64,000 nucleotides of DNA, taken from positions 82,323-146,322 of the forward strand of contig NJBG01000001.1 of assembly GCA_005222965.1 (NCBI GenBank), written 5' to 3'. The notes below the pieces were generated by a model. It searched no databases and was not told the origin of the DNA. It saw nothing but the letters and a program-made list of their open reading frames with translations. Below, in pieces: positions 3,007 to 63,738 of this stretch (position 1 is its first letter; every line of letters starts with the position of its first letter). The position numbers and the translations under genes are program-made. Source of the stretch: Candidatus Woesearchaeota archaeon B3_Woes (GTDB taxonomy: Archaea > Nanobdellota > Nanobdellia > Woesearchaeales > B3-WOES).

Positions 3007-3898
3007 TTGTTTCTTTTAAACCGCTTTTCAGATCGTGTTCTGGTTTCCAATTAAGCTCTTTTTCTGCTAAAGTTGTGTCTAAAAAAATATCTTTAACTTC
3101 CCCTTTTATTTCTTCAATATAATTTGGTTTTTCTTTAAAATTTGTTAATTCCTTTAATATATTAAATACTTCATTAACACTAACTTGCTTTCCATTAGCT
3201 AAATTGAATAATTTGTGTTTTGGATTTTTATTTATACTTTCAACTATAAACTTTACCAAATCAATAACATAAATAAAATCTCTTGTTTGTGTCCCATCCC
3301 AAAAAATGGTAGGTATTTTTCCTTTAATCATTTTTTCTATAAAAACTGAGATTAATCTTTTATTACTTGGGTCATCTCTCATACCATAAACATTTCCAAA
3401 ACAAAAGATAATATAATCTAAATTGTATAATTGATTATAAATCCGTATATAGTGTTCTGCTGTATGTTTAGAAATTCCATAAGGAGAACAGGGATTTAAA
3501 GGATGTTTTTCATCTACAGGAAGATATTCTGGTTCACTAACTCTTGCCCCTCCTGTTGACGTATATATGATTTTTTTTACATTATTTTTCCTACACGCTT
3601 CTAGTATATTTATTGTTCCAATAACATTTATTTGAGCATCCTTCATAGGATCTTTTAATGATTCTCTTAACATAACATGAGCAGCAGTATGAATCACAAT
3701 TTCTGGCTTCTCTTTTTCAAAAATAGGATTTATATCTTCTGTAATATCTGCTTTATAAAATTTTGATTGTTTATTTATGTACTCTTTTTTTCCAGTACTT
3801 AAATCATCAACTATAATAACTTTCTCTCCTCTTTTTATAAGAATATCTACTATGTGACTTCCAATAAAACCTGCTCCACCTGTAACTAATATTTTCAT
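2984..3898 (-). CDS. NAD-dependent sugar epimerase/dehydratase (UDP-glucose 4-epimerase-like SDR)
   Basis: N-terminal Rossmann motif VTGGAGFIGSHIV and catalytic YGISK (YxxxK). Confidence 0.8.
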   Translation of the reverse strand: MKILVTGGAGFIGSHIVDILIKRGEKVIIVDDLSTGKKEYINKQSKFYKADITEDINPIFEKEKPEIVIHTAAHVMLRESLKDPMKDAQINVIGTINILEACRKNNVKKIIYTSTGGARVSEPEYLPVDEKHPLNPCSPYGISKHTAEHYIRIYNQLYNLDYIIFCFGNVYGMRDDPSNKRLISVFIEKMIKGKIPTIFWDGTQTRDFIYVIDLVKFIVESINKNPKHKLFNLANGKQVSVNEVFNILKELTNFKEKPNYIEEIKGEVKDIFLDTTLAEKELNWKPEHDLKSGLKETIEWFKKV

Positions 3899-4536
3899 TT
3901 TAAGTTTTCTTTTAACTCACTCAAACTAGAAATCTTATTTTCAAACTCTCTGCTTCCGCGTCTGTCAACTAATATTGCTTTTATTCCTGCGTTTTCTGCA
4001 CTTTTAATATCTGAATCTATAGAATCTCCAACCATTACTGCTTCGCTTTTCTTAACCTTTAATTTCTTAAGAACATCTCCAAATGATTTTTTATTAGACT
4101 TTAAATTTCCAGTGTCACAACTTAAAACAATCTCATCAAAATATTCCTTTAATTTGTGCTTTTCCAAAACAGATTCTACTGAAAAAGGATCTGTATTTGC
4201 TATTAATACTAATTTGTAATCTTTTTTCAATTCTGTTAATACATCAATTGTATCATCATAAATAGTTGATAAAATTGTATTCTTATTCCACATCCCTATT
4301 AACTTCTCAACAACAAAATCCGGAACATTTAATTCAAATGCTTTTATAACCTCTTCAAATCCCTCTTTAAGGTCTTTAAATTTCTTTGTCATAAATACTT
4401 CTTCAAATTTAACAATATATTCAGAAAAATCCATATCCTCTAATCTTAAAATCCATTTGACTTGTTTAACAGGACTCCTAACTCCATTTTCTAATAAAGT
4501 TCCCCACAAATCAAAGAATATTAATTTAGTTGCCAT
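3895..4536 (-). CDS. HAD-like hydrolase
   Basis: N-terminal FFDLWGTLL (motif I variant), ANTD, and C-terminal VGDSIDSD. Confidence 0.55.
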   Translation of the reverse strand: MATKLIFFDLWGTLLENGVRSPVKQVKWILRLEDMDFSEYIVKFEEVFMTKKFKDLKEGFEEVIKAFELNVPDFVVEKLIGMWNKNTILSTIYDDTIDVLTELKKDYKLVLIANTDPFSVESVLEKHKLKEYFDEIVLSCDTGNLKSNKKSFGDVLKKLKVKKSEAVMVGDSIDSDIKSAENAGIKAILVDRRGSREFENKISSLSELKENLK

Positions 4537-51634: not shown

Positions 51635-54600
51635 TTATTTATTTCTTATAATTACTGCACCTACTGCAAATATTACTAATCCAAGGATTAAAACAATTAA
51701 AATACTAAGTAATATCATATATTCAAAAGTATCTGTGAATTTTGTTTTTGGGACTGTTGGTTCTGGTTCTGTAACAACTGGTTCTTCTGTTATTGTAACT
51801 TCTTCCTGTTCGGGTTCCACAACGCCAGGCATTTTACACTCGGCTTTTGTTAAGTATAATGTTTCAGTTATTTCTTCATCATCATACTCTGCTCTAACAT
51901 TTATTATATAAGTTCCTTCAGCTAAATTACTTGGAGCAGTAAAAGCTTCACCAATTGTTGCTTTATACTCGTCTCTATCATATGCTTTTAACTCAACAAC
52001 CTGAGTACTACTTATCTCTAATTCATTACTAGATATAGATAATTCAACATCTTCATCTTTTTTACCAATATCTTTTAAACCAACAACAATATCAAAACTA
52101 TCATAACATGAGATTGTTGAAGGACTTACTACTGCTGAAGATATAATCACTTCATGACTCTTTCTTTCTATCTCTATTGTTTCTGATTGATGTAATGTGC
52201 ACTGTTCTACTCCATCATCATCCTTTCCACAAGCCTCTACATAAACAGTATATTCATCTCCGTCTTTTGCATCTGTAGGCATCTTAAATGTGAATGTAAA
52301 TTCTTCTTCATCTCCTTCATCTAAATCAAAATCTTCGTCATCTTTTAGTTTATCATTATCTTCATCCTTAACAACATCGCCATCTTCATCTAATAGTTTT
52401 ATTTCAAGCTCAATATCTTCAATATCTAAATCACCATCATTTTCAACTTCAACTACAATTTCTACTATTTCATCTGGTTTTGGATTATCCTCATCTACAT
52501 CAACATCCTTTATTTGTAAAACTCCTGTTCCAGCAGGTGGTGGAGTTTCTGGTTCACTATCTGTCCTTACCTTGTAAGAGCTAAATCCTGTTACATTAAA
52601 TACAACTGTTCCTGAACCAGTTGGATAATCTGTAAAACTAATTAATGTGCATGATGTACACTCTGTTATAATCTCATCAGGGTTTGTTGTAAATTCATCA
52701 CTGAAATAGATTACTGGTTCCTGGTTATATGTCAAACTAGATAATGTTATTGTTGTATTAGGTATATCAAACATATCTAACACACCAGAATCAATTGAAA
52801 CAATAGTTTTTTCTATTTTAACAAAATCATCAATATTAACAATATCCTTAAGATTGATTACTGCATCTCCAAAATCAATTTTTCCATGACTGTTTTCTAT
52901 TGTTAAACCTGTGAAGTTTGCAACGTTTTCTTCAGTAACATCTTGGATTGTACCACCAAAAGTTGTTATTGGAACTGTACTAACTTCAATACTCCATGAA
53001 GCACTATCAAATATATCTGTTGAATTTTGAACCTCAACTAAAACTTCATAAGTTCCAGCTGTTGTTTCAACAAATGTAAATGAATCTCCAGAGCCTTTTT
53101 CAATTGCATTAACAAACCATTTTATAGTTGGGGATATGTTGTCTGGATCAATAACATTAACACTTAAATCTTGGTCAACTCCATCTCCAATTAATAAGCT
53201 TCCTTCTGCAGGATTTGTATCATTTATATAAGGTATATCATCAAGTTTTTGATTTACATTTACTGTTATATTTTGTTCAGCATCTGCTTGTCCATCACTA
53301 ACAACAAAAGTTATTTCTTCAGAACCAAACCAGTCTTGATCAAATGTTGAGATTGTAGCTACATTATCTCCTGAAATTTCTACTTTTATATTTTGGTTAT
53401 TAGCAACACTCCATGTTAATTCGTCGCCATCAACATCAAATCCATAATTATCTAAGTCAATTGAGTCATCATCTTCACCTTCATCAAATTCTACACCAGG
53501 TATTGTAGCATTGATAACAGGTGGATCATTCTTTTCTAAAACTTCAACATTAAATTGTTCAAAAACATCCCCTACACTCATGTTTATAACTGAAATTCCA
53601 AATAAATCATCTAATGGAGTTCCACAACTAAATATACCGTTGCTTGTAACATTACAGTTAATTAAACTATCATTCTCTCCAACAATTTCATAAACCACTC
53701 CTGTTGTATTTCCAAAAGTATAATTCTTTAAATCAATCGGTGACCATGATGGAGATTCACTCTCATTAACCTTAAGAACACTGTTCAATGTACTAACATC
53801 AAGGCAAGCTTCAACATTAACCTCAATAGAATCTTCTATTGTGTATCTTGGAAGGCCTCCCCTATACTTTATTACTATATCATATGTAATATCGGAATCA
53901 CCAAGAGCAAGTACATCAAAATCAAATTCTTTCTGTTCTGCCCTTATTAGCTCATAATCTGTTTCACCAATCAAAGTCTCTCCGTCATAGACTGAAATAG
54001 TTACTTCTTCATCCCAGTCACCAGTATTAGCTAATGTCAATAGTAAGGTTGTATCTCTATCACAAGTCAAATCATCTTTTGACCATTCCATACCAATTAA
54101 TTCTACTCTATGGAAATCCCTATCAACATTGAAGTTAATTGTTTTCTCACTCCAATAGTCGTTTTCAATAAGGTCTTCTCCTATTACCTCTAAATCAAGA
54201 GTAAATGAAGGCTCTAATGTATCGTAAGGTATATCAAAACTAAGAATAATTGTCTCTGTCTCCTGACCCTCAAGGTTAAATTCCTCACTGTCTGATCCAA
54301 ACCCAAAAGGACTTAATTCAGTAGAAGATATAATCTCAATAATCTCATTATCTACCTCTGCAGGAAATCTATTCAAAATAGTATACTCTACATCAAGAGT
54401 ATGGCCTGGTTTAATCCCATCAATAGTATCTCCATCTTCAACTGATTGTCCATCAATTGTAATATCAACAATATCAAGAACAGGAAGTACTGTTAAATTA
54501 AACTCCCGTGTTGTGAAATTTGATCCTTGGTCTGTTACTTTTATTTCAACTAATTTTAAGCCAAAATGAGTAGCGTTTGGTGTCCATCTAAATTCTCCTG

Positions 54601-56410
54601 TAGATCTATTAATTGTAGCACCACCAGGGTTAGTAGTAATAAAAAATTCTAAAGCACTTACATTACTATCAATATCATGTGCATCTGCATCATAAACATA
54701 TTCAATAGCTTCAATTGCTGTTAAGTTTGGTTTTGTGGTAAAATAAGGTGCGTCATTAACATTATTAACAATAACTGTAACATTTACAGTCGAAGAAGCA
54801 TCTCCTTCATCAGTAGCTGTTAATGTAATATTCCTTTCACCATACCAATCTTCATCAGCTGATATATTTAATACATGAGTTTCGTCATCAATATCAATAT
54901 TAAGATTTGCTGTATTTCCTCCAACACTCCATGAAATATTTTCATCTGCTGACTCTACATCACCAACAAAAAGGTCTAAATCATAATCATCAAAATATTC
55001 TTCTTCATCAAATTCAATATCCCCTATTGGATCAATAACAGGTATATCATTAACAGGATATACTATCAAAGTAAAATTCTGCATATCAAAATCTGTAGCA
55101 TCTTCTACTTTTACAGATATATTCCAGTAGCCAACTTCAGCATCATCTGGTGTAAAGTTTATAAGCCCTGTAATAGGATCAATAACCATTCCAGGTGCAT
55201 TTTCAAGTAAAGAATAAGTTAATGTATCATTCTCAACATCTGTTGCTTCAACATCATAAAGATATGTATCTTCTTCATCCACTTCAACAGGAGCAGGTGA
55301 AATAATAGTGGGTGCATCATTAACTGGAGTTACTTCAATACCAACCACTTCTTCAATTGACCCATAACCATCATCTATAAGTATAGTACAGTTTGTCATA
55401 CCATTCCAATTATCTGTAGCATTCATCAAAAGGAATGTCTCATTTACTATCTCACAATCTACTTCATTTTCTTCAAGCACACTATAAGTAATATCATCTC
55501 CATCAGGATCAAAAACCTCCTCGCTAAGGTTTCTCTCAACAGAAGAGTCTTCATTTACTAAATAAAAGAACAAACTAAAATCAGCCTCAGGCAACCTATT
55601 ATTAGTTGCATTGAATGTGCAAGGACCTTTATGGAAATCATCTGAATCTATATTTGTATCAATACCATCATGAATCCTAAATACACATTCATCACTAGGA
55701 TCAGTTGAATAGCCATCGGGTGCGTTATCTGTTGTATTACCATCATCATAATTTCCATAAGTAACTTGATCAATGATTTCTCCTAAATTATCATAAAGAA
55801 CTAGCATGCCGTTATTACTCTGTGAACCGCTTGGATTTAAAATAATAAGGTGGTCTCTTGAAGGGATTACTCCTTCTAATAACTCAGTTGCATTAGAGCC
55901 ATCAATTAAAGATAAATTCCAATTAGTAATATTTATATTATGCATAGTTGGATTGTACAGTTCAAACCATTCATCAGCAACACCAATAGCACTATTATTA
56001 TCCCAGTCTGTTCGAGGCTTAACAACAAATTCATTAATCACAACCGTAGTATAAGCAGTCAAGTTTAAATGAGTAATACTAGTATCATTATATATTGCTG
56101 TTTGATCCGCCTCAACTCCATTAATTTTAAATGTAACAGTATAACCCCCATAAGAAGAATTTCCATTAATAACCATGCCACTATTCCAACCTTCTTGAGT
56201 TAGGTTATGGGTGCCATCAGCTACGCTTGGATCATCATCATTTTGAATAAAAGCCTCAATTAATGTCCCAACAGAAGCATTTACACCATTATACATAACA
56301 GTCCCAGTTAAAATCATTGGTGGTAGCAGTTGTCCATAAACAACTGAAGCTAAAGAAATAGTGAATAATAATAAAATTAACACAATACTTTTTTTAAAGT
56401 TTTTAGTCAT
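51635..56410 (-). CDS. Giant (1591 aa) acidic cell-surface protein with cadherin-like/Ig-like repeats and C-terminal TM anchor
   Basis: Signal peptide. Repeated PVNDAP, PVNDIP and NVNDAPYF modules. D/E-rich. C-terminus is TEPEPTVPKTKF, a hydrophobic helix, then RNK. Confidence 0.8.
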   Translation of the reverse strand: MTKNFKKSIVLILLLFTISLASVVYGQLLPPMILTGTVMYNGVNASVGTLIEAFIQNDDDPSVADGTHNLTQEGWNSGMVINGNSSYGGYTVTFKINGVEADQTAIYNDTSITHLNLTAYTTVVINEFVVKPRTDWDNNSAIGVADEWFELYNPTMHNINITNWNLSLIDGSNATELLEGVIPSRDHLIILNPSGSQSNNGMLVLYDNLGEIIDQVTYGNYDDGNTTDNAPDGYSTDPSDECVFRIHDGIDTNIDSDDFHKGPCTFNATNNRLPEADFSLFFYLVNEDSSVERNLSEEVFDPDGDDITYSVLEENEVDCEIVNETFLLMNATDNWNGMTNCTILIDDGYGSIEEVVGIEVTPVNDAPTIISPAPVEVDEEDTYLYDVEATDVENDTLTYSLLENAPGMVIDPITGLINFTPDDAEVGYWNISVKVEDATDFDMQNFTLIVYPVNDIPVIDPIGDIEFDEEEYFDDYDLDLFVGDVESADENISWSVGGNTANLNIDIDDETHVLNISADEDWYGERNITLTATDEGDASSTVNVTVIVNNVNDAPYFTTKPNLTAIEAIEYVYDADAHDIDSNVSALEFFITTNPGGATINRSTGEFRWTPNATHFGLKLVEIKVTDQGSNFTTREFNLTVLPVLDIVDITIDGQSVEDGDTIDGIKPGHTLDVEYTILNRFPAEVDNEIIEIISSTELSPFGFGSDSEEFNLEGQETETIILSFDIPYDTLEPSFTLDLEVIGEDLIENDYWSEKTINFNVDRDFHRVELIGMEWSKDDLTCDRDTTLLLTLANTGDWDEEVTISVYDGETLIGETDYELIRAEQKEFDFDVLALGDSDITYDIVIKYRGGLPRYTIEDSIEVNVEACLDVSTLNSVLKVNESESPSWSPIDLKNYTFGNTTGVVYEIVGENDSLINCNVTSNGIFSCGTPLDDLFGISVINMSVGDVFEQFNVEVLEKNDPPVINATIPGVEFDEGEDDDSIDLDNYGFDVDGDELTWSVANNQNIKVEISGDNVATISTFDQDWFGSEEITFVVSDGQADAEQNITVNVNQKLDDIPYINDTNPAEGSLLIGDGVDQDLSVNVIDPDNISPTIKWFVNAIEKGSGDSFTFVETTAGTYEVLVEVQNSTDIFDSASWSIEVSTVPITTFGGTIQDVTEENVANFTGLTIENSHGKIDFGDAVINLKDIVNIDDFVKIEKTIVSIDSGVLDMFDIPNTTITLSSLTYNQEPVIYFSDEFTTNPDEIITECTSCTLISFTDYPTGSGTVVFNVTGFSSYKVRTDSEPETPPPAGTGVLQIKDVDVDEDNPKPDEIVEIVVEVENDGDLDIEDIELEIKLLDEDGDVVKDEDNDKLKDDEDFDLDEGDEEEFTFTFKMPTDAKDGDEYTVYVEACGKDDDGVEQCTLHQSETIEIERKSHEVIISSAVVSPSTISCYDSFDIVVGLKDIGKKDEDVELSISSNELEISSTQVVELKAYDRDEYKATIGEAFTAPSNLAEGTYIINVRAEYDDEEITETLYLTKAECKMPGVVEPEQEEVTITEEPVVTEPEPTVPKTKFTDTFEYMILLSILIVLILGLVIFAVGAVIIRNK

Positions 56411-56504: not shown

Positions 56505-56634
56505 GGCTTTGCACATAAATGAAATTTTGCATATTTATTATAGTCTTTTGCACAAAAATCAATTTCCAAAACATTTATATATTTAGTCGTATAATAATAA
56601 TGCGTTGAAAAGATAGATAAAATAATGTTTAGTG

Positions 56635-56811
56635 ATGAAGATGGTCGTGATTCAGGTTTCCAAGGCGGATAGTGAGAAGGTATTTACAATCCTATCCAAT
56701 AATGGACGTTTTACAGAATTATCAGATAATAGATTCGGTATAATAGATAATGAAGAAGATGTTCTAAAGAAACTTGACGAGGCAAACGTAAAATATAAAA
56801 AAGTGGTATGA
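56635..56811 (+). CDS. Hypothetical small protein (58 aa) inside the element; absent from track
   Basis: MKMVVIQVSKADSEKVFTILSNNGRFTELSDNRFGIIDNEEDVLKKLDEANVKYKKVV. Confidence 0.3.
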   Translation: MKMVVIQVSKADSEKVFTILSNNGRFTELSDNRFGIIDNEEDVLKKLDEANVKYKKVV

Positions 56812-56817
56812 TTCTAT

Positions 56818-57141
56818 ATGAAACTTTACAGCATCTTTCTACCAAAAACCTATAATAATAAAAAACCAATTCCGACCAAAAAAATTAGAAGAATAACTAA
56901 GGAAATAAGAGAGAAATTTGGTTCATATTCTGCAGACCCTTATGCCAAATTGCCTATAATTGAAGGCACATGGACATCAAAAACAAAAAAACTATTCAAT
57001 GAAACTATGACGTGTGTCCAAGTTTTCACTGAAGACACTTATAAAACTCAAAGATGGTTTAAAGCAAAAAAAGAGACTTGGGCACAAGAGCTTGATCAAG
57101 AAGTATTATTTATAATCGAACAGCATGCAGAGATATTATAA
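56818..57141 (+). CDS. Hypothetical protein (107 aa)
   Basis: ORF 7 nt after the previous one. Confidence 0.4.
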   Translation: MKLYSIFLPKTYNNKKPIPTKKIRRITKEIREKFGSYSADPYAKLPIIEGTWTSKTKKLFNETMTCVQVFTEDTYKTQRWFKAKKETWAQELDQEVLFIIEQHAEIL

Positions 57142-57417
57142 TATATTTCTTCACCTTTAATGAATTTATCTAAAATGAAACTCTCCTATTATTCTTACAT
57201 AGGCTATGGCTTCCTTGTAGCCACTGTATTTGGTTTGGGTTGGTATGGAATAAAAGATTATAGAGTTCAAGGGTTGTTCATTCTAACTGTTTGTTTTTTA
57301 TTGGTTGATGTTATAAAGTATTATAGAAATAAGTAATTCTTTATTTATGTGCAATTCATTACATAGTTTTGCACAAAAAAGAGAATCTTTTTAAATATAT
57401 AAAGAATAAAGACTATT

Positions 57418-57999
57418 ATGTCCACAGATGAAAACATTAATAAAAAATTAACCCCTGTATTAGAAAAATATAGGGAATCTTTCTCTAATAAAGTTATAGA
57501 AGAAGGAAAGACTGATTCTGATATATTGATGGAAGTATTTAATATTACTCATGAGGAAAAGATTCAAAATAAGCAATATTGGGGAAGAGAACTTGGTAAG
57601 TGTTGGGAACGTTTAGTTCAATCTGTATTTTCTGAACGAAAAGATTATAGTTCAGGTATAAAAGAAGGATCTGATGAAATTTGTGATTGTGTTATTGGTA
57701 ACATGGCTATTGAAGCAAAATATAGGGTTGGTTCTGGAGATTCTGGTACTTTAAAAAAATTTAAACAATATGCACAAAGATTAAAAGATAAAGGGCTTGA
57801 TCCGATAATGATTTTTTTGAGAGAAGATAATCTTCCGGCAGCTATAACAGCATGTAGAAATGGAGGTTGGACAATCATAATGGGGGATGAGTGTTTTAAG
57901 TTTATTGAAAAAGAATCTAATTTTGATTTAAAGGTAGCATTAAAATCTCTTAAAGGAAAATATGATATAAAAAAGAAAAAACAAATTACTCTTTTTTGA
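57418..57999 (+). CDS. Putative type II restriction endonuclease, PD-(D/E)xK-like
   Basis: SDEICDCVIGNMAIEAKYR fits the D-x9-ExK pattern. Convergent with the methyltransferase, 3' ends overlapping by 14 nt. Confidence 0.5.
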   Translation: MSTDENINKKLTPVLEKYRESFSNKVIEEGKTDSDILMEVFNITHEEKIQNKQYWGRELGKCWERLVQSVFSERKDYSSGIKEGSDEICDCVIGNMAIEAKYRVGSGDSGTLKKFKQYAQRLKDKGLDPIMIFLREDNLPAAITACRNGGWTIIMGDECFKFIEKESNFDLKVALKSLKGKYDIKKKKQITLF

Positions 58000-59347
58000 G
58001 AACAATCATTCTATCATAATCAATTTTATCGGCAAAAGACACATTTCTGTCAATATTCATACTCCTCTGTTTTAGAATTATTTGAAATTGTTTCTCTTTT
58101 TTGAATCCAACAGATTCAGCTATCTTTGATAGAAATAGTGATGTTGGAACAAAAACTTTTCTGATATTATTATCACCAATAACTATACAATATCTTCCAC
58201 CATTTTTCAAAACTTTATACGCTTCTTCAAAATGTTTTTTCATATCTAAAAAATATTTATAAGTAACCCTCGACCTTAATTTACTTTGCGTATTAGAATC
58301 GTATGCATTATATATTTCTTCGATAATTTTATCTGTTTCATCGATTCCTATTTGACCTAGTATAGAATATTCTTTTTTTGGTATCCTCTCTGTACCAATC
58401 TCATAATTATATAAATTTAATCTATCTTGATCGCTTTTAACTAAATCTAACCAATGCACCCTTAACCTATTAGCCCAAATATAATCCATTGCATTAATGT
58501 ATGGTGGAGATGTCACTATTAGATCAACCTTATCAATATCTTCTGGTAAATTTATTTCTCTAGCGTCATTTCCAATTATTTTTGCAAAATTAGATATGTT
58601 TTGTTCTTTAGAGAACTCAGAAATATATTCTATATATTTTTCTGAGAAAGACGAAAACAAATCAATAGTATCATTCTCTGAAAGTTGTTTTATATTTCTC
58701 CAATCTTTCCTCCTAGCCGTTAACATTTGTCCGGGTGCAATATAAGATGATTTTCTAACAGCCATAGAAAAAGATACTAAGAAAAAGTCTCTAATATCTT
58801 TATCTTCTATTTTATTTACATATTTTTTTATCTTAGCTAATCCTCTAATAACATTTTCATTAAACCAAAAATCAACTCCTCTAAAATTAGGTATTGGTAA
58901 ATCAGAACTAGAATCGTTTTTGATATTATCCATCAATGAGTTATATTTAGATCGTAATTTGTTTTCTTCGATTGATGTTGATTTTACTTTGCTAACTAAT
59001 CTAGCGTAAGGATTATAATCAATACCTAAACAATTTCTTTTTAACTTCTTTGCTTCTATAAAAGTTGTTCCTCCGCCTATAAAAGGGTCTAAAATAATAT
59101 CGTTTTCTTTAGAAAAATTTTTAATTGCCCACCTTGGTAACTCAGGTATATATTTACAAGGATATAATGCTATATTATGTACGTCTCTTTTGCTTTCTCT
59201 AAAAATACTTAAATAAGCATCATCTTCAATATTCAAAGGAATATCTCCATATATTTTCTTGAGAGTTATTTCTCTTCCATTATCATTATGAACTTCTTGT
59301 TTTTGTTTTATATGTGAAGAAAATTCACCTAGATTTTTTTGTTGCAT
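57986..59347 (-). CDS. DNA methyltransferase, N4-cytosine/N6-adenine family (SPPY type, likely N4C)
   Basis: Motif I LDPFIGGGTT near residue 90 and motif IV IVTSPPY near residue 283. Confidence 0.75.
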   Translation of the reverse strand: MQQKNLGEFSSHIKQKQEVHNDNGREITLKKIYGDIPLNIEDDAYLSIFRESKRDVHNIALYPCKYIPELPRWAIKNFSKENDIILDPFIGGGTTFIEAKKLKRNCLGIDYNPYARLVSKVKSTSIEENKLRSKYNSLMDNIKNDSSSDLPIPNFRGVDFWFNENVIRGLAKIKKYVNKIEDKDIRDFFLVSFSMAVRKSSYIAPGQMLTARRKDWRNIKQLSENDTIDLFSSFSEKYIEYISEFSKEQNISNFAKIIGNDAREINLPEDIDKVDLIVTSPPYINAMDYIWANRLRVHWLDLVKSDQDRLNLYNYEIGTERIPKKEYSILGQIGIDETDKIIEEIYNAYDSNTQSKLRSRVTYKYFLDMKKHFEEAYKVLKNGGRYCIVIGDNNIRKVFVPTSLFLSKIAESVGFKKEKQFQIILKQRSMNIDRNVSFADKIDYDRMIVLKKE

Positions 59348-59350
59348 TTT

Positions 59351-59602
59351 TTAATTTTGTATTTTCATTCCTTTAAATCCTTCTTCAGGATTCTTTAACT
59401 TATATAACCTTTTTCTACTATCTTTATCATCAATATTAACTTCCAACCAACCAGCCTTTCTTAAATCTGAAAAGAAAACATTAATACCTGCATCGTCTTT
59501 CAAAGCTTTTTTAGCCTGTTCAAAAGTAAACTCTTTATCTTTAAATTTATTCCAGAGAATTGCGTATCGTATTTGGATCCATTTAGGGAGGGGTTTTGTC
59601 AT
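59351..59602 (-). CDS. Hypothetical small protein (83 aa) co-oriented with the methyltransferase
   Basis: Ends 4 nt before the methyltransferase start codon. Confidence 0.45.
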   Translation of the reverse strand: MTKPLPKWIQIRYAILWNKFKDKEFTFEQAKKALKDDAGINVFFSDLRKAGWLEVNIDDKDSRKRLYKLKNPEEGFKGMKIQN

Positions 59603-59644
59603 AAGTAAATAGCTTATATATTAAGTATTTAAAAGTTTCTGTTT

Positions 59645-60994
59645 TTAATGATTTGGAATAATTTCCAAATAATGTTTACAGGAACTTTCTGCTAACTTAT
59701 TAAACGCAGCCCTAACACTATCATTTTCTATTGCTTGTTGTGTTTCTAATACTAGATTATCCATTGTATTAAAATAGTGTGTTCTTGTTAATTTTGATTT
59801 TGTTTTCCCAATAAATGTTGAGAAGTCTCTCCCATTATATTCATTACAACAACCATAAGGACAAGGGAATTTTTTCCCATGAGAATCATATATTTTCTTC
59901 AATGCTCTCAGTGAAATCATAGAAAGAAAATAATAATAAAAATATTTTCCTTTCAAAAATGAGGGTAAGTCTGTATTTTTATAAGAAACAAACATGTTTT
60001 CTACAATCCCATTTGAAGGTGTAGAAAAACCATCAATTCCTGCTTGTAACATAAATAAACCCAAAGAATCAACATTTAATGCAAAAACTGGAATTTTAAA
60101 CTTCTTACTTACTACCTTTAAACCTTTCAAAAATCTTTTAAGGTTGTCTCTTTGAATTCCAGCATTTCTACTATCTAAACCATAAGAATCAACTATCTTA
60201 AAGAAAAAGAATTGAGGTTGCTCTTCATTTATATATTTCAATATTTTATCTAAATAATCATATTCTTCAAGTGTAGACGTCTTTAAAACAAAGTTTGCAG
60301 CAGGTATCCATCCTTCGTGAGTTTTACAAATTTTTTCTGTTTCTTTATTTATTTTTATAGCCATATCTAAACTCTCAGATACTTCGGGAATAATCAGATT
60401 AGATGGAGCTAATAATATTTTAGAACCCAACCTTTTGCTTCTTTGTAAAAATTTCAAAGTGTGGTTAAATTCTTTTCCATGAAGTTTATGAATATACTCT
60501 CTAAATAATTTAATTTTATCAATTCTTTTTTTGTTTCTACTTTCATCACCTTTCTTTTTACCAATACCTATTTTTTTAATTTGTTCAACATATTCTAATG
60601 GTAAATTTTCAATATCTATTTGGTCAGGATCAACCAAACTTAAATATGAAGATTCTCCTAAGGGATCGATTATTATAACTTTGTTTTCTATAATTTCTAA
60701 AAAACCATTTTCTTTCTTGGTTCCGTCAAGATTTAATTGTACAGACCTTGTTTTTTTTGGTAAGAGTAATTTCTTAACATTATTAAAAGGGATAATAACC
60801 CCTTGAAAACAATTTTTTTTAAACTTGTTATTTTCAACCCAATCTGATAAAAAATCAACATCCCAACTTGATTTAGGTTCAACAAAAAAGCAAGGAGTAC
60901 TGAATATTAAATCTTTTTTTGGTAAGTTTACATGAACTAATCTTCTTCTCACACCACTTGCTTCTTTAATTTCATTAATTTCGACGTTTTTCAT
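59645..60994 (-). CDS. Hypothetical protein (449 aa) with C-terminal Cys cluster CPYGCC...H
   Basis: No clear family. GIDGFSTPSNG followed about 60 aa later by a CxxxCC-N22-H cluster. Confidence 0.55.
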   Translation of the reverse strand: MKNVEINEIKEASGVRRRLVHVNLPKKDLIFSTPCFFVEPKSSWDVDFLSDWVENNKFKKNCFQGVIIPFNNVKKLLLPKKTRSVQLNLDGTKKENGFLEIIENKVIIIDPLGESSYLSLVDPDQIDIENLPLEYVEQIKKIGIGKKKGDESRNKKRIDKIKLFREYIHKLHGKEFNHTLKFLQRSKRLGSKILLAPSNLIIPEVSESLDMAIKINKETEKICKTHEGWIPAANFVLKTSTLEEYDYLDKILKYINEEQPQFFFFKIVDSYGLDSRNAGIQRDNLKRFLKGLKVVSKKFKIPVFALNVDSLGLFMLQAGIDGFSTPSNGIVENMFVSYKNTDLPSFLKGKYFYYYFLSMISLRALKKIYDSHGKKFPCPYGCCNEYNGRDFSTFIGKTKSKLTRTHYFNTMDNLVLETQQAIENDSVRAAFNKLAESSCKHYLEIIPNH

Positions 60995-60998
60995 TTTC

Positions 60999-61499
60999 TC
61001 ACCTTATAATTCTTTTAGTATGTAATATTTTCATTATATCATCAAATCTTTCTTTAAATGTATCTAATTCATCTAATGGAATAATTATACCACCTTTAGA
61101 TTCTATCTCATTATATATATCTTCTTTCTTTTCTTGGATATATAAAAATTTACCAAGACGATTTGAGATAACATAAATTTCAAAAAACTTATTTTGTAAT
61201 ATTATTTTATTTTTATATATAGGATCTAAAAGATTTCCATTAGAAAAAAGTAATCCATTTCTTGAATCTGGTGGATATTGGTAAATTTCCCCTTTTGTGA
61301 TTAAGTTTTTGATATGTTTAGATATTGTGTTTCTATGAAAAAAAGTGTTTTCTTCAATCTGTTTCATGTTTATTCCAATATTAGTATTTAATTGGATTAT
61401 CTCTTTGATTTTAGATTCGGCATACTTCTCTCTTTCTTGAGGAGGTTTTTTTGAATATAAATCATATTCTTCTAGTTCAGGTATCTTTATCGTGTGCAT
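60999..61499 (-). CDS. Winged-helix DNA-binding protein (166 aa)
   Basis: NTISKHIKNLITKGEIYQY is a wHTH recognition-helix pattern. First gene of the co-oriented 166-449-83-MTase string. Confidence 0.45.
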   Translation of the reverse strand: MHTIKIPELEEYDLYSKKPPQEREKYAESKIKEIIQLNTNIGINMKQIEENTFFHRNTISKHIKNLITKGEIYQYPPDSRNGLLFSNGNLLDPIYKNKIILQNKFFEIYVISNRLGKFLYIQEKKEDIYNEIESKGGIIIPLDELDTFKERFDDIMKILHTKRIIR

Positions 61500-61686
61500 A
61501 TATATTGTGAATAGAAAGGTATTTAAATACTTTATGGTTTTCTAATATACATATTGTGCATTTACGTTGTGCACACCAAAAAACGAAACATTTATATACT
61601 TAAGTGATATACTTATTTAATAAGTAAATAACTTATTAATATAAATAAGGCAAGAAGCCCGAAGGCTTCCTGTCGGAGGAACCAAA

Positions 61687-62871
61687 ATGCACGACGAAGC
61701 ACAAAATAGTTCTCCAATAGGAGAAAACAATTCAGAGGTTAAAAGCTTTTCTGAATTAAAAGAACAAAATGAAGAGTTGCATAACATTGCTAAAGAAATT
61801 ATGTCAAGAATGGGAGAAGTCGAACAAGGCACTCATAAGAAATTTATACATGAGGTCATGGAAAAGTACAAAGATGTACAAAAGAAAAAAGATGGTAAAT
61901 ATAGTCAGGATTGGGCTTCATACAATAAAGTTCAGTCAAAAGAAAAACTCCTTTTAATGAACATTCTAGATGAACTTCTTAATTATGTTGAATTTCCTGA
62001 AGATAAGAAATGTGTTGGTAGAAAGCCTGTTGATTTAAAAGAGAAAATATTCTACACAATATTACAAGCCTACAATCTTAAAAGCGGTCGTAGGTGTATT
62101 TCTGACTTAGAGATAGCACGAAAACTAGGCTATGTAAACAAGACACCACATTTCAATACAGTATTGAATTGTCTTAAAGATCAATCTCTAACTATATATT
62201 TAAAACATTTAATTGAAGTTTCTGGTATTCCATTAAAACAAATAGAATCTGACTTTGCAGTTGATGCTTCTGGATTTTCCACATCAGAGTTTGGTAGATG
62301 GTTTGATGTTAGAACAGGCTCTAATTCCGATAAAAGAAAGTATAGGAAATGTCATATAACTTGTGGCGTCAGAACTAATATAATTACTGCTGTGAATATA
62401 ACAAAAGGAACAAGGTCAGATAGTCCAGAGTTTCCTGATCTAATTAAAAAAACAAACAGAATTTATGATATAAAAGAAGTTTCCGCAGATAAAGGGTATA
62501 CTTCCCGAGAAAACCTCCAAGCTGTTTCTAATATTGGGGCTATACCTTTTATACCTTTCAAAAAGAACATTAAGCCAAATACAAGGAGTAAGAATGTAGA
62601 CATTTGGAGAAAGATGTATATGTTCTTTACTCATTATCCAGAAGAGTTTGATCATCATTATCATAAAAGAAGTAATGTTGAGACTTGCTTTCATATGATT
62701 AAGAGGAAGTTTAACAGCCATTTGAGAAGCAGAACAGAAACAGGACAAGATAATGAAGTATTAGCTAAATGTTTATGCCACAATCTTTGTGTCTTGGCTC
62801 AAGAAGCTATGGAACTAGGAATTGAACTTGATTTTAAAAAATGTGCAGACATAGAGGTTGCACATAATTAG
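61687..62871 (+). CDS. DDE transposase, IS4/IS5 superfamily (DDE_Tnp_1-like)
   Basis: FAVDASGFS, VSADKGYTS and YHKRSNVETCFHMIKRKF (D, D, E-containing blocks). A GGAGGA ribosome-binding site is 8 nt upstream of the ATG. Confidence 0.75.
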   Translation: MHDEAQNSSPIGENNSEVKSFSELKEQNEELHNIAKEIMSRMGEVEQGTHKKFIHEVMEKYKDVQKKKDGKYSQDWASYNKVQSKEKLLLMNILDELLNYVEFPEDKKCVGRKPVDLKEKIFYTILQAYNLKSGRRCISDLEIARKLGYVNKTPHFNTVLNCLKDQSLTIYLKHLIEVSGIPLKQIESDFAVDASGFSTSEFGRWFDVRTGSNSDKRKYRKCHITCGVRTNIITAVNITKGTRSDSPEFPDLIKKTNRIYDIKEVSADKGYTSRENLQAVSNIGAIPFIPFKKNIKPNTRSKNVDIWRKMYMFFTHYPEEFDHHYHKRSNVETCFHMIKRKFNSHLRSRTETGQDNEVLAKCLCHNLCVLAQEAMELGIELDFKKCADIEVAHN

Positions 62872-62904: not shown

Positions 62905-63738
62905 TTATTTTTTAGTCTTAATTTTTTTATTGAGAAAATACCCTGCAATACCCAGAACTATAACTACTACAAGTACAGACAATCCAAGTCTAAAATTCTC
63001 TTTAGCTTTAAACAAACCTATTACTGCTCCAGTTATAGCACTAAGTCCTGTTTTTTCTGGTGTTGTTTCCTCTGTTGTCTCAGCAGGAGCTGTTTCCAGC
63101 CCTAAACCTTCATCTGTTTCTTCTTCGGGCTCTTCATTACTTTGAATTTGTACTTGTGGTGGAAGAACATAAGTACAGCTTACCGTTTGTCTGTAAGAAC
63201 CGTTATTACATTCTGTATCAGCACATAGTTCTGTTTGTTTACCATAAGAAGAACATGGAGAAATTGGCTCACACACATAATTAGGTTTACAGCTGGAGCC
63301 ACCACCGCCTCCTCCGCCTCCTCCTCCTCCGCCTCCTCCGCCACCTCCAGAGCCATCTTCTGGACTTGAAGGTTGTTCTGGTTGTTCTTGTATTATTACA
63401 TTTAAATCAAGATTATTTGTAGTGCCCCATCCTCTTGTTGCATTTCCTGCTTCTACATCTTCAATTTTAAAAATGATAATATCATCTATAAAACCAGACG
63501 TAACAAATAGTGTATATTTACCAGTTTCATTTAAATTATAAGTACTATCTAATGTTTCATTAACATAAACTTGTATTTCAGTTCCAATAGGAGCAGATTC
63601 ATTATTAATTTTTACATTCCCATAATATTTATCTGGTAATGGTGGTGTGGATGGAACTGCACTTACTAAACTTAAAGAAAATATTACAATAAATAAAATT
63701 AAAATTTTTTTAGTCATTTTTTCTTCTTCTTTCCCCAT
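62905..63738 (-). CDS. Secreted surface protein with uninterrupted poly-Gly(17) tract and C-terminal TM anchor
   Basis: Signal peptide. DGSGGGGGGGGGGGGGGGGGSS. Cys-rich segment. C-terminus TTPEKTGLSAITGAV, a hydrophobic helix, then NKKIKTKK. Confidence 0.65.
   Translation of the reverse strand: MGKEEEKMTKKILILFIVIFSLSLVSAVPSTPPLPDKYYGNVKINNESAPIGTEIQVYVNETLDSTYNLNETGKYTLFVTSGFIDDIIIFKIEDVEAGNATRGWGTTNNLDLNVIIQEQPEQPSSPEDGSGGGGGGGGGGGGGGGGGSSCKPNYVCEPISPCSSYGKQTELCADTECNNGSYRQTVSCTYVLPPQVQIQSNEEPEEETDEGLGLETAPAETTEETTPEKTGLSAITGAVIGLFKAKENFRLGLSVLVVVIVLGIAGYFLNKKIKTKK

Follow-up and report, generated by a model that had tools for sequence, protein, structure and literature searches.

A predicted type II restriction-modification gene pair beside a transposase-linked module in Candidatus Woesearchaeota archaeon B3_Woes

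In a 64,000-nucleotide stretch of contig NJBG01000001.1 from Candidatus Woesearchaeota archaeon B3_Woes (hereafter the window, taken at its full length), two genes encoding proteins of 193 and 453 aa run towards each other and meet at their 3′ ends. The question raised by this locus is whether these genes, which we call R and M, correspond to the endonuclease and the methyltransferase (MTase) of a restriction-modification (R-M) system and, if so, whether that system is carried by a mobile element. Both had been proposed in an earlier note made from the sequence alone. The two open reading frames (ORFs) that it described, their convergent arrangement and the 14-nt overlap of their 3′ ends match the ORF list exactly, and the SPPY motif that it attributed to the methyltransferase is found at residues 280–283 of M. 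We assign a probability of about 0.85 to the interpretation that R and M are a type II R-M system of this archaeon, its activity being predicted. The pair is genuine but ordinary, as it represents a known system type.

The strongest evidence for an R-M system is the conserved pairing of the two genes. For this analysis, 80 genome loci with an R homologue were surveyed, a partner being defined as a complete amino-MTase within 400 nt. Such a gene adjoins the R homologue in 75 of the 80 loci; of the five exceptions, three run into a contig end. Two types of partner were found. Beta-class enzymes of ~300–340 aa with a DPPY motif are present in 61 of the 75 loci (42 convergent, 17 with R followed by M and 2 with M followed by R). 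The other 14 loci contain alpha-order enzymes of ~440–480 aa with an SPPY motif, homologous to the M protein of the window (E about 1e-90); the order is M followed by R in 13 of them, those with an R of at least 150 aa. In the tree of R, the SPPY-paired enzymes are split between a bacterial clade and a separate archaeal one. Members of the archaeal clade (the window, L001, L002 and L090–L095) are always convergent, often with the identical 14-nt overlap, as in L001, L002 and L095. R and M also occur together on individual contigs and have diverged to a matching extent, with closest homologues 66–72% identical for R and 66–73% for M. On plasmids of Shewanella and Campylobacter coli, as well as in a metagenome-assembled genome of Acidobacteria, a ~70-aa HTH_3 gene abuts R, which corresponds to the classical C-protein/R/M layout. 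The type II reading given in the earlier note is supported by this adjacency, by the layout on the plasmids of relatives and by the PD-(D/E)xK model of R described below.

R has 1,506 homologues at E ≤ 1e-3 (protein database, 90% clustering) and M has 283 at E ≤ 1e-10. Because of these numbers, and because the motif residues of R are conserved, the two genes are judged not to be chance ORFs. The R family comprises 158 clusters at 50% identity, and its 256 loci in species-representative genomes are spread over many bacterial phyla plus Methanosarcinales and Micrarchaeota. The motif region of R reads D86-E87-x2-D90 ... E99-A-K101. In an alignment of 31 sequences, D86, E87, D90, K101, Y102, R103 and the segment S106-G-D-x-G-T-L-K-K-F115 are invariant, position 99 is E or D in every sequence and E58 is nearly invariant; we propose E58, D90, E99 and K101 as the catalytic residues. 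The D...ExK motif reported in the earlier note is present, but the spacing of nine residues given there was a one-residue miscount, the motif being D90-x8-E99-x-K101 or, counted from D86, D86-x12.

The same alignment was used to build an AlphaFold2 (AF2) model of R, which has a predicted local distance difference test score (pLDDT) of 88.9 and a predicted template-modelling score (pTM) of 0.85. In the model, D90 opens strand 91–93, E99 and K101 lie in strand 96–101 and E58 is in the preceding long helix 52–71, a placement that, as modelled, is the canonical PD-(D/E)xK layout. When the model was compared by Foldseek with the PDB, the top matches were Ecl18kI, the nuclease domains of Card1 and Can2, VC1899, PspGI, EcoO109I and EndoMS; all of them are PD-(D/E)xK nucleases, and restriction enzymes lead the list. 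The earlier note had allowed for R folding as something else, and the AF2 model and the Foldseek search returned this nuclease fold.

Sequence profiles point in the same direction. R gives a weak match to the PADLOC REase_II model (E 0.0019), and a close homologue (P0001) scores 20.9 bits on the Pfam profile RE_ApaLI. A distant homologue (P0311), 27% identical to R (E 2e-14), exceeds the Pfam gathering scores over nearly full profiles both for RE_ApaLI (26.2 bits) and for RE_ScaI (29.4 bits), two families classed as PD-(D/E)XK type II restriction enzymes (PMC3424549). Since P0311 passes both thresholds while R stays below that of RE_ApaLI, the profile scores indicate that the R family is an uncurated sister family of ScaI and ApaLI and a member of neither. 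No R homologue was found in a phage collection, and neither R nor the proteins of the neighbouring module matched PHROGs beyond weak HTH matches.

With respect to M, its sequence matches CEE44_00820 from this archaeon, B3_Woes, with 100% identity. It matches PF01555 (E 1.4e-23, 84.5 bits against a cutoff of 26.7) and, from end to end, the PADLOC MTase_II model PDLC03362 (E 1.5e-52). Motif I is FIGGG (residues 89–93) and motif IV is SPPY; F89, G91, G93 and S280-P-P-Y283 are invariant among 24 aligned homologues. Pairwise alignment shows that M is circularly permuted with respect to the beta-class enzyme TTHA0409: residues 61–118 align to the C-terminal S-adenosylmethionine (AdoMet) region of the latter, and residues 255–285 and 353–395 to its N-terminal catalytic region. 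The ~190 residues between motifs I and IV are presumed to be the target recognition domain (TRD). Relative to TTHA0409, M also has ~65 extra residues inserted after motif IV, ahead of the next conserved block. The motif order of the alpha group is X-I-II-III-TRD-IV-VIII, typically with DPPY (PMC2890505). Judged by its motifs, M is an alpha-order amino-methyltransferase, but with SPPY in place of DPPY. This combination resembles the M.MvaI-like 'S12' class described by Timinskas et al. (1995).

Several results weigh against the assignment of R and M to a type II R-M system. The score of R on RE_ApaLI (PF09499) is below threshold (16.8 bits, E 0.0057, cutoff 25), and the match spans the catalytic region alone, at profile positions 103–152. 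No NCBIfam profile matches R, and neither its sequence nor the 31-sequence family profile has a significant match among PDB chains. The Foldseek matches, with probabilities up to 0.99–1.00, have E-values of only about 1e-3 and TM-scores of about 0.4. The exact sequence of R is without record in a collection of 15 billion proteins, in which the best match is 72% identical. The partners of R relatives are mostly of the other MTase type, as the 61 DPPY loci show. Last, a search for a recognition site by palindrome depletion, performed on the window alone, on ~1.2 Mb of sequence pooled from around R-bearing loci and grouped by MTase type, and for consistency per locus, gave generic signals and no specific site.

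The missing protein record bears on the possibility that R is decayed or silent, in which case M would be an orphan methylase or what is left of an R-M system. The neighbouring genes CEE44_00810, 00820, 00825, 00830, 00835 and 00840 all have protein records in the collection, whereas the accessions TKJ17060 (00810) and TKJ17061 (00820) are consecutive, so that locus tag CEE44_00815 is left without a protein accession. Decay of R beside a methylase does occur in the family: R is split in L067 (9989–10555) and L087 (577–1158), next to a full-length methylase ORF, and truncated in L080 (9986–10288), where the neighbouring MTase-like ORF lacks DPPY. Such decay is as expected for R-M systems and can leave orphan methylases. 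In the window, however, R is a full-length ORF that aligns with its homologues over the entire length and retains all invariant residues; a TATA-like box of its own precedes it where relatives have theirs, and its AF2 model is a confident one. We therefore consider decay of R quite unlikely; the GenBank annotation probably treated R as a pseudogene or overlooked it, although the ORF is intact. The nature of the Foldseek matches raises another alternative, namely that R, though a PD-(D/E)xK nuclease, serves a purpose other than restriction (in repair, or as a signal-activated effector such as Card1 or Can2) and simply lies beside a methylase, as Card1, Can2, VC1899 and EndoMS score similarly to the restriction enzymes. 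Against it, R is a single domain of 193 aa that lacks a CARF sensor domain, an amino-MTase is nearly always adjacent, both in bacteria and archaea, in three gene orders and sometimes with a C-protein, and P0311 passes the thresholds of RE_ScaI and RE_ApaLI. This makes a non-restriction role very improbable.

A type II R-M system being the preferred interpretation, the base that M methylates has to be considered. SPPY is common to most N4-cytosine MTases (N4C-MTases), and DPPY is the usual signature of N6-methyladenine (m6A) (PMC8885841); the archaeal protein HVO_0794 is also cited for SPPY among N4C-MTases (PMC5867850). On the basis of its SPPY motif, our best guess is that M methylates N4-cytosine. 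The statement of the earlier note that SPPY is typical of N4-methylcytosine (m4C) agrees with the literature; for M it is suggestive, as motif IV does not fix the base. M.CbeI, with DPPY, makes m4C, and DPPY is found both in M.NruI (m6A) and in its close relative M.Sbo13I (probably m4C) (PMC2890505). Moreover, R homologues 45–54% identical to R are among those paired with DPPY beta-class methylases in the 61 loci, which means either that the site can also be protected by DPPY enzymes or that specificities differ between clades. Because motif IV does not dictate the base and most R relatives have DPPY partners, this assignment is tentative, and a type II system in which M makes N6-adenine methylation deserves more weight than the two alternatives discussed above. 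Nevertheless, SPPY is invariant in 24 of 24 aligned members of the M family and is the motif of most characterised N4C-MTases, and among solved structures M matches rotifer N4CMT and M.PvuII, although the m6A enzymes DpnA, MboIIA and CcrM match as well. Hence we regard N6-adenine methylation as unlikely, and N4-cytosine as the better assignment.

In the depletion analysis, GGCGCC, TTCGAA, CTCGAG and GGGCCC lead in both MTase-type groups. GTGCAC, the ApaLI site, was considered as a site for R and rejected: its depletion ranks fourth, with an observed/expected ratio of 0.47, which in a scan without a control set is not evidence. As the depletion scans had no control set, we do not propose a recognition site. 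As a separate observation, the 4-bp palindromes with the strongest under-representation across the window are GATC (130 sites against 197 expected) and CATG (115 against 171); their shortage may reflect other R-M systems on the genome, now or in the past.

The features of the locus are collected in Table 1.

Table 1. Coordinates in the window of the R-M pair, its candidate expression signals and the adjacent module.
Feature	Position	Strand	Basis
TATA-like box TTTTTAAATATATAAA, candidate archaeal promoter of R	57389..57404	+	Sequence reading; 14–29 nt upstream of the R start codon
R, 193-aa PD-(D/E)xK restriction endonuclease candidate	57418..57999	+	ORF list, family, fold
A-rich tract (on +; T-tracts on the - strand just past the M stop) and T6 run (57991–57996) at the R end	57966..57996	.	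Sequence reading
Overlap (14 nt) of the convergent 3′ ends	57986..57999	.	ORF coordinates
M, 453-aa amino-methyltransferase	57986..59347	-	ORF list, PF01555, PADLOC MTase_II, motifs
83-aa winged-helix (wHTH) gene	59351..59602	-	ORF list; weak similarity (E 2.2e-4) to the wHTH region of MsvR
Palindrome ATAAGTAAATAGCTTAT (ATAAGCTATTTACTTAT), candidate operator	59601..59617	.	Abuts the wHTH start codon, after a TATA box at 59626–59634 (- strand)
449-aa ORFan (CEE44_00830)	59645–60994	-	ORF list; only three homologues
166-aa HTH protein gene	60999–61499	-	ORF list; upstream of wHTH-M, same strand
IS5-family-like DDE transposase	61687..62871	+	DDE_Tnp_1 (E 5.4e-23); divergent from the 166-aa gene

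Within the overlap, the stop codon of R is TGA (57997–57999, + strand) and that of M is TAA (57986–57988, - strand). The A- and T-rich tracts around the overlap are candidates for oligo-T archaeal terminators, each located inside the 3′ end of the partner gene. With respect to the start of R, seven related archaeal loci have a TTTAAATA-type box about as far upstream of the gene, and TATA boxes precede R in all archaeal relatives examined. The inverted repeat TTGCACATAA/TTATGTGCAA upstream of R was considered as a conserved operator of the R-M pair and discarded, since none of eight related loci has it ahead of R. The 10-mer TTGCACATAA or its reverse complement occurs exactly five times in the window, four of them within the island around the pair, and two copies with one mismatch were also found; the positions, mismatch copies included, are 56509, 56548, 57345, 57369, 62858 and 62879, and also 42603. 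Its copies make up the inverted repeat immediately ahead of the R promoter and, at the stop of the transposase, a perfect 10-bp hairpin, one copy being simply coding sequence of the transposase C-terminus.

The small winged-helix gene preceding M ends 3 nt before the M start codon, and its product is a candidate controller co-transcribed with M. Homologues of it, 70% identical in L097 and 51% in L098, stand ahead of different defence genes. In the window, in L097 and in L098, the promoter of this gene contains, between TATA box and start codon, a 17-bp palindrome, ATAAG-N7-CTTAT, which we consider a candidate operator of the winged-helix protein. Further window copies are located at 61600–61616 and 61620–61636, in addition to that of Table 1; L097 has it at ~1614–1650 and ~3637–3653, and L098 at ~1961–1977 and ~3981–3997. 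In all related contigs the palindrome is also present upstream of the transposase gene (that of L098 included) and of the 166-aa gene. The small ORFs (90–98 aa, weak HTH_34) that precede M in L092, L093 and L095 were compared with the wHTH gene of the window as possible homologues; the alignment is gappy, with 23–26% identity, and homology was not established.

The second part of the question is whether the pair is mobile. The IS5-like transposase is encoded 2.3 kb from the R-M pair and matches transpos_IS5_2 with E 4.3e-37, below the curated cutoff. The window segment from 61637 to 59382, which includes the 166-aa, 449-aa and wHTH genes, shares 74% DNA identity with L097, and the homology breaks off where the wHTH gene ends. 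This module recurs on three other metagenomic contigs (L097, 1–6302; L098, 503–5011; and L099), and homologous IS5-like transposases are encoded in all three. Downstream of the wHTH gene, the place of M is taken in L097 by a type IIG fused R-M enzyme of 800 aa. In L098 and L099, the wHTH homologue precedes a DarT-Macro gene, divergent from a pair of genes for 173 and 445 aa. The bare R-M cassette, in turn, is found in unrelated neighbourhoods among the relatives: by ScpB and gyrase genes, by a phage integrase, and by Cas1 and AIPR. Because the cargo of the module differs between contigs and the bare cassette sits in unrelated contexts, the interpretation of the R-M pair as mobile cargo, here attached to a transposase-linked module, is partly supported by these comparisons.

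The earlier note had placed the pair inside a mobile element. What stands of this is its cargo position in a conserved IS5-like transposase module that has other cargo elsewhere; the usual marks of an integrated element were not found. The 64-kb window contains no integrase, and no tRNA gene lies by the R-M pair, the sole one being at 360–433. The GC content of the R-M region (0.27–0.29) is not anomalous with respect to the values across the window (0.25–0.37). No att site, target duplication or convincing flanking repeats that could mark the ends of the element were found in the window. Inverted repeats were considered as element ends in the window, L097 and L098 and rejected, as they are short, AT-rich and 70–77% complementary. 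A broader interpretation, which we put forward tentatively and at less than even odds, is that the R-M pair is one of several interchangeable defence cargos of an undescribed transposon-like element of DPANN archaea (transposase, 166-aa, 449-aa and wHTH genes), its regulator coupling cargo to transposase expression. If true, a module with three defence cargos would represent modular cargo exchange on an archaeal transposable element. The cargo-swapping wHTH/transposase module is the only part of the locus that might repay follow-up.

By their conservation, the 166-aa and 449-aa genes appear as companion genes of this module, and we do not assign them to the R-M function. The 449-aa protein CEE44_00830 has its three homologues among 5.8 billion proteins. 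It gave no match in Pfam, NCBIfam, PADLOC or PHROGs, and a profile search against the PDB was also empty. A C-P-Y-x-C-C ... H cluster near its C-terminus is conserved. Its AF2 model has a pLDDT of 47.3, and the Foldseek matches, all of them weak, are TIM barrels, which provides a hint only of such a fold.

From these data the following mechanism can be proposed. M would use AdoMet to methylate a short specific sequence on the host DNA, most likely at cytosine N4. R, a small Mg2+-dependent PD-(D/E)xK endonuclease and presumably a homodimer, would cut the same sequence when it is unmethylated, so that incoming viral or plasmid DNA would be destroyed. M is probably co-transcribed with the 83-aa wHTH gene from a leaderless promoter that carries the palindromic candidate operator, and R would be transcribed on the opposite strand from its own TATA-box promoter. 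Both transcripts would converge and overlap by at least 14 nt, each oligo-T terminator lying inside the 3′ end of the other gene, and this convergent, overlapping transcription could hold the expression of R below that of M. Because it sits in the cargo position of the transposase-linked module, the R-M pair may also stabilise the module by post-segregational killing.

Other genes of the window deserve a brief description. A two-gene unit (59 and 107 aa, 56630–57144) is 88% identical in DNA to positions 4353–4867 of L096, with unrelated flanks; L096 is a marine-sediment contig rich in small ORFs that carries an IS240-type transposase. The unit looks like a small mobile two-gene module and is possibly toxin-antitoxin-like. 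Immediately upstream of the island, an ORF of 1,591 aa (51635–56410, - strand) starts with a signal-like segment at the N-terminus, continues with many acidic repeat domains and has a transmembrane segment at the C-terminus; it likely encodes a giant surface or adhesion protein. On the other side, an ORF of 277 aa (62905–63738, - strand) has no family match; CCTCC/CCGCC repeats on the + strand at 63290–63355 encode a Gly-rich linker, and the DNA coding for its N-terminus is similar to the corresponding part of the giant surface protein gene (a 38-nt repeat, 56343 versus 63665).

The analysis of R adds a putative restriction enzyme family of ~1,500 members from bacteria and archaea, mostly unnamed or annotated as 'hypothetical', which is missed by the thresholds of Pfam and NCBIfam. 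A single methylome or cleavage result on any of its members would annotate the whole family. The presence of a predicted R-M system in a Woesearchaeote is also of interest with regard to the defence repertoire of DPANN archaea, which have reduced genomes, and to the ecology of hosts, symbionts and viruses.

Among known systems, those closest to R by sequence are the ScaI and ApaLI families (PF09569 and PF09499; groups 5 and 10 of Steczkiewicz et al. 2012, PMC3424549), which like R are small single-domain type II PD-(D/E)xK nucleases of ~190 residues. They share with the R family a patchy, horizontally transferred distribution. Unlike them, R lies below the Pfam gathering score and its partner is an amino-MTase; M.ApaLI, for its part, methylates cytosine at C5. 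Neither the ScaI site (AGTACT) nor the ApaLI site (GTGCAC) can be transferred to R. By structure, the closest Foldseek PDB matches are Ecl18kI, PspGI and EcoO109I, which share the PD-(D/E)xK core with the R model but are only 12–15% identical to it, with TM about 0.4, and ~100 residues larger. The CCNGG/CCWGG specificity and the base flipping belong to those enzymes and are not assigned to R. For M, the comparison is with the beta-class structures (TTHA0409, 2zie; rotifer N4CMT, 8s9n; M.PvuII, 1boo; DpnA; and M.MboIIA). All of them share with M the PF01555 domain, the FxGxG AdoMet loop and the (S/D)PPY loop; these beta-class N4/N6 enzymes differ from M in motif order, M having the AdoMet region first and SPPY second.

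Regarding gene organisation, convergent type II systems controlled by a C-protein represent the Esp1396I/PvuII-type arrangement. Bacterial members of the R family are alike in having a ~70-aa HTH_3 gene that overlaps the start of R, together with a convergent MTase. The pair of the window resembles such systems in being convergent and in having a gene for a small DNA-binding protein with a palindromic candidate operator at its own promoter. It differs from them in that the candidate regulator is a winged helix and not an HTH_3 protein, and in that it precedes M and not R. Because the wHTH gene also precedes the type IIG enzyme and the DarT-Macro gene elsewhere, this candidate regulator, unlike a C-protein, appears to be kept with the transposase-linked module and not with the R-M pair.

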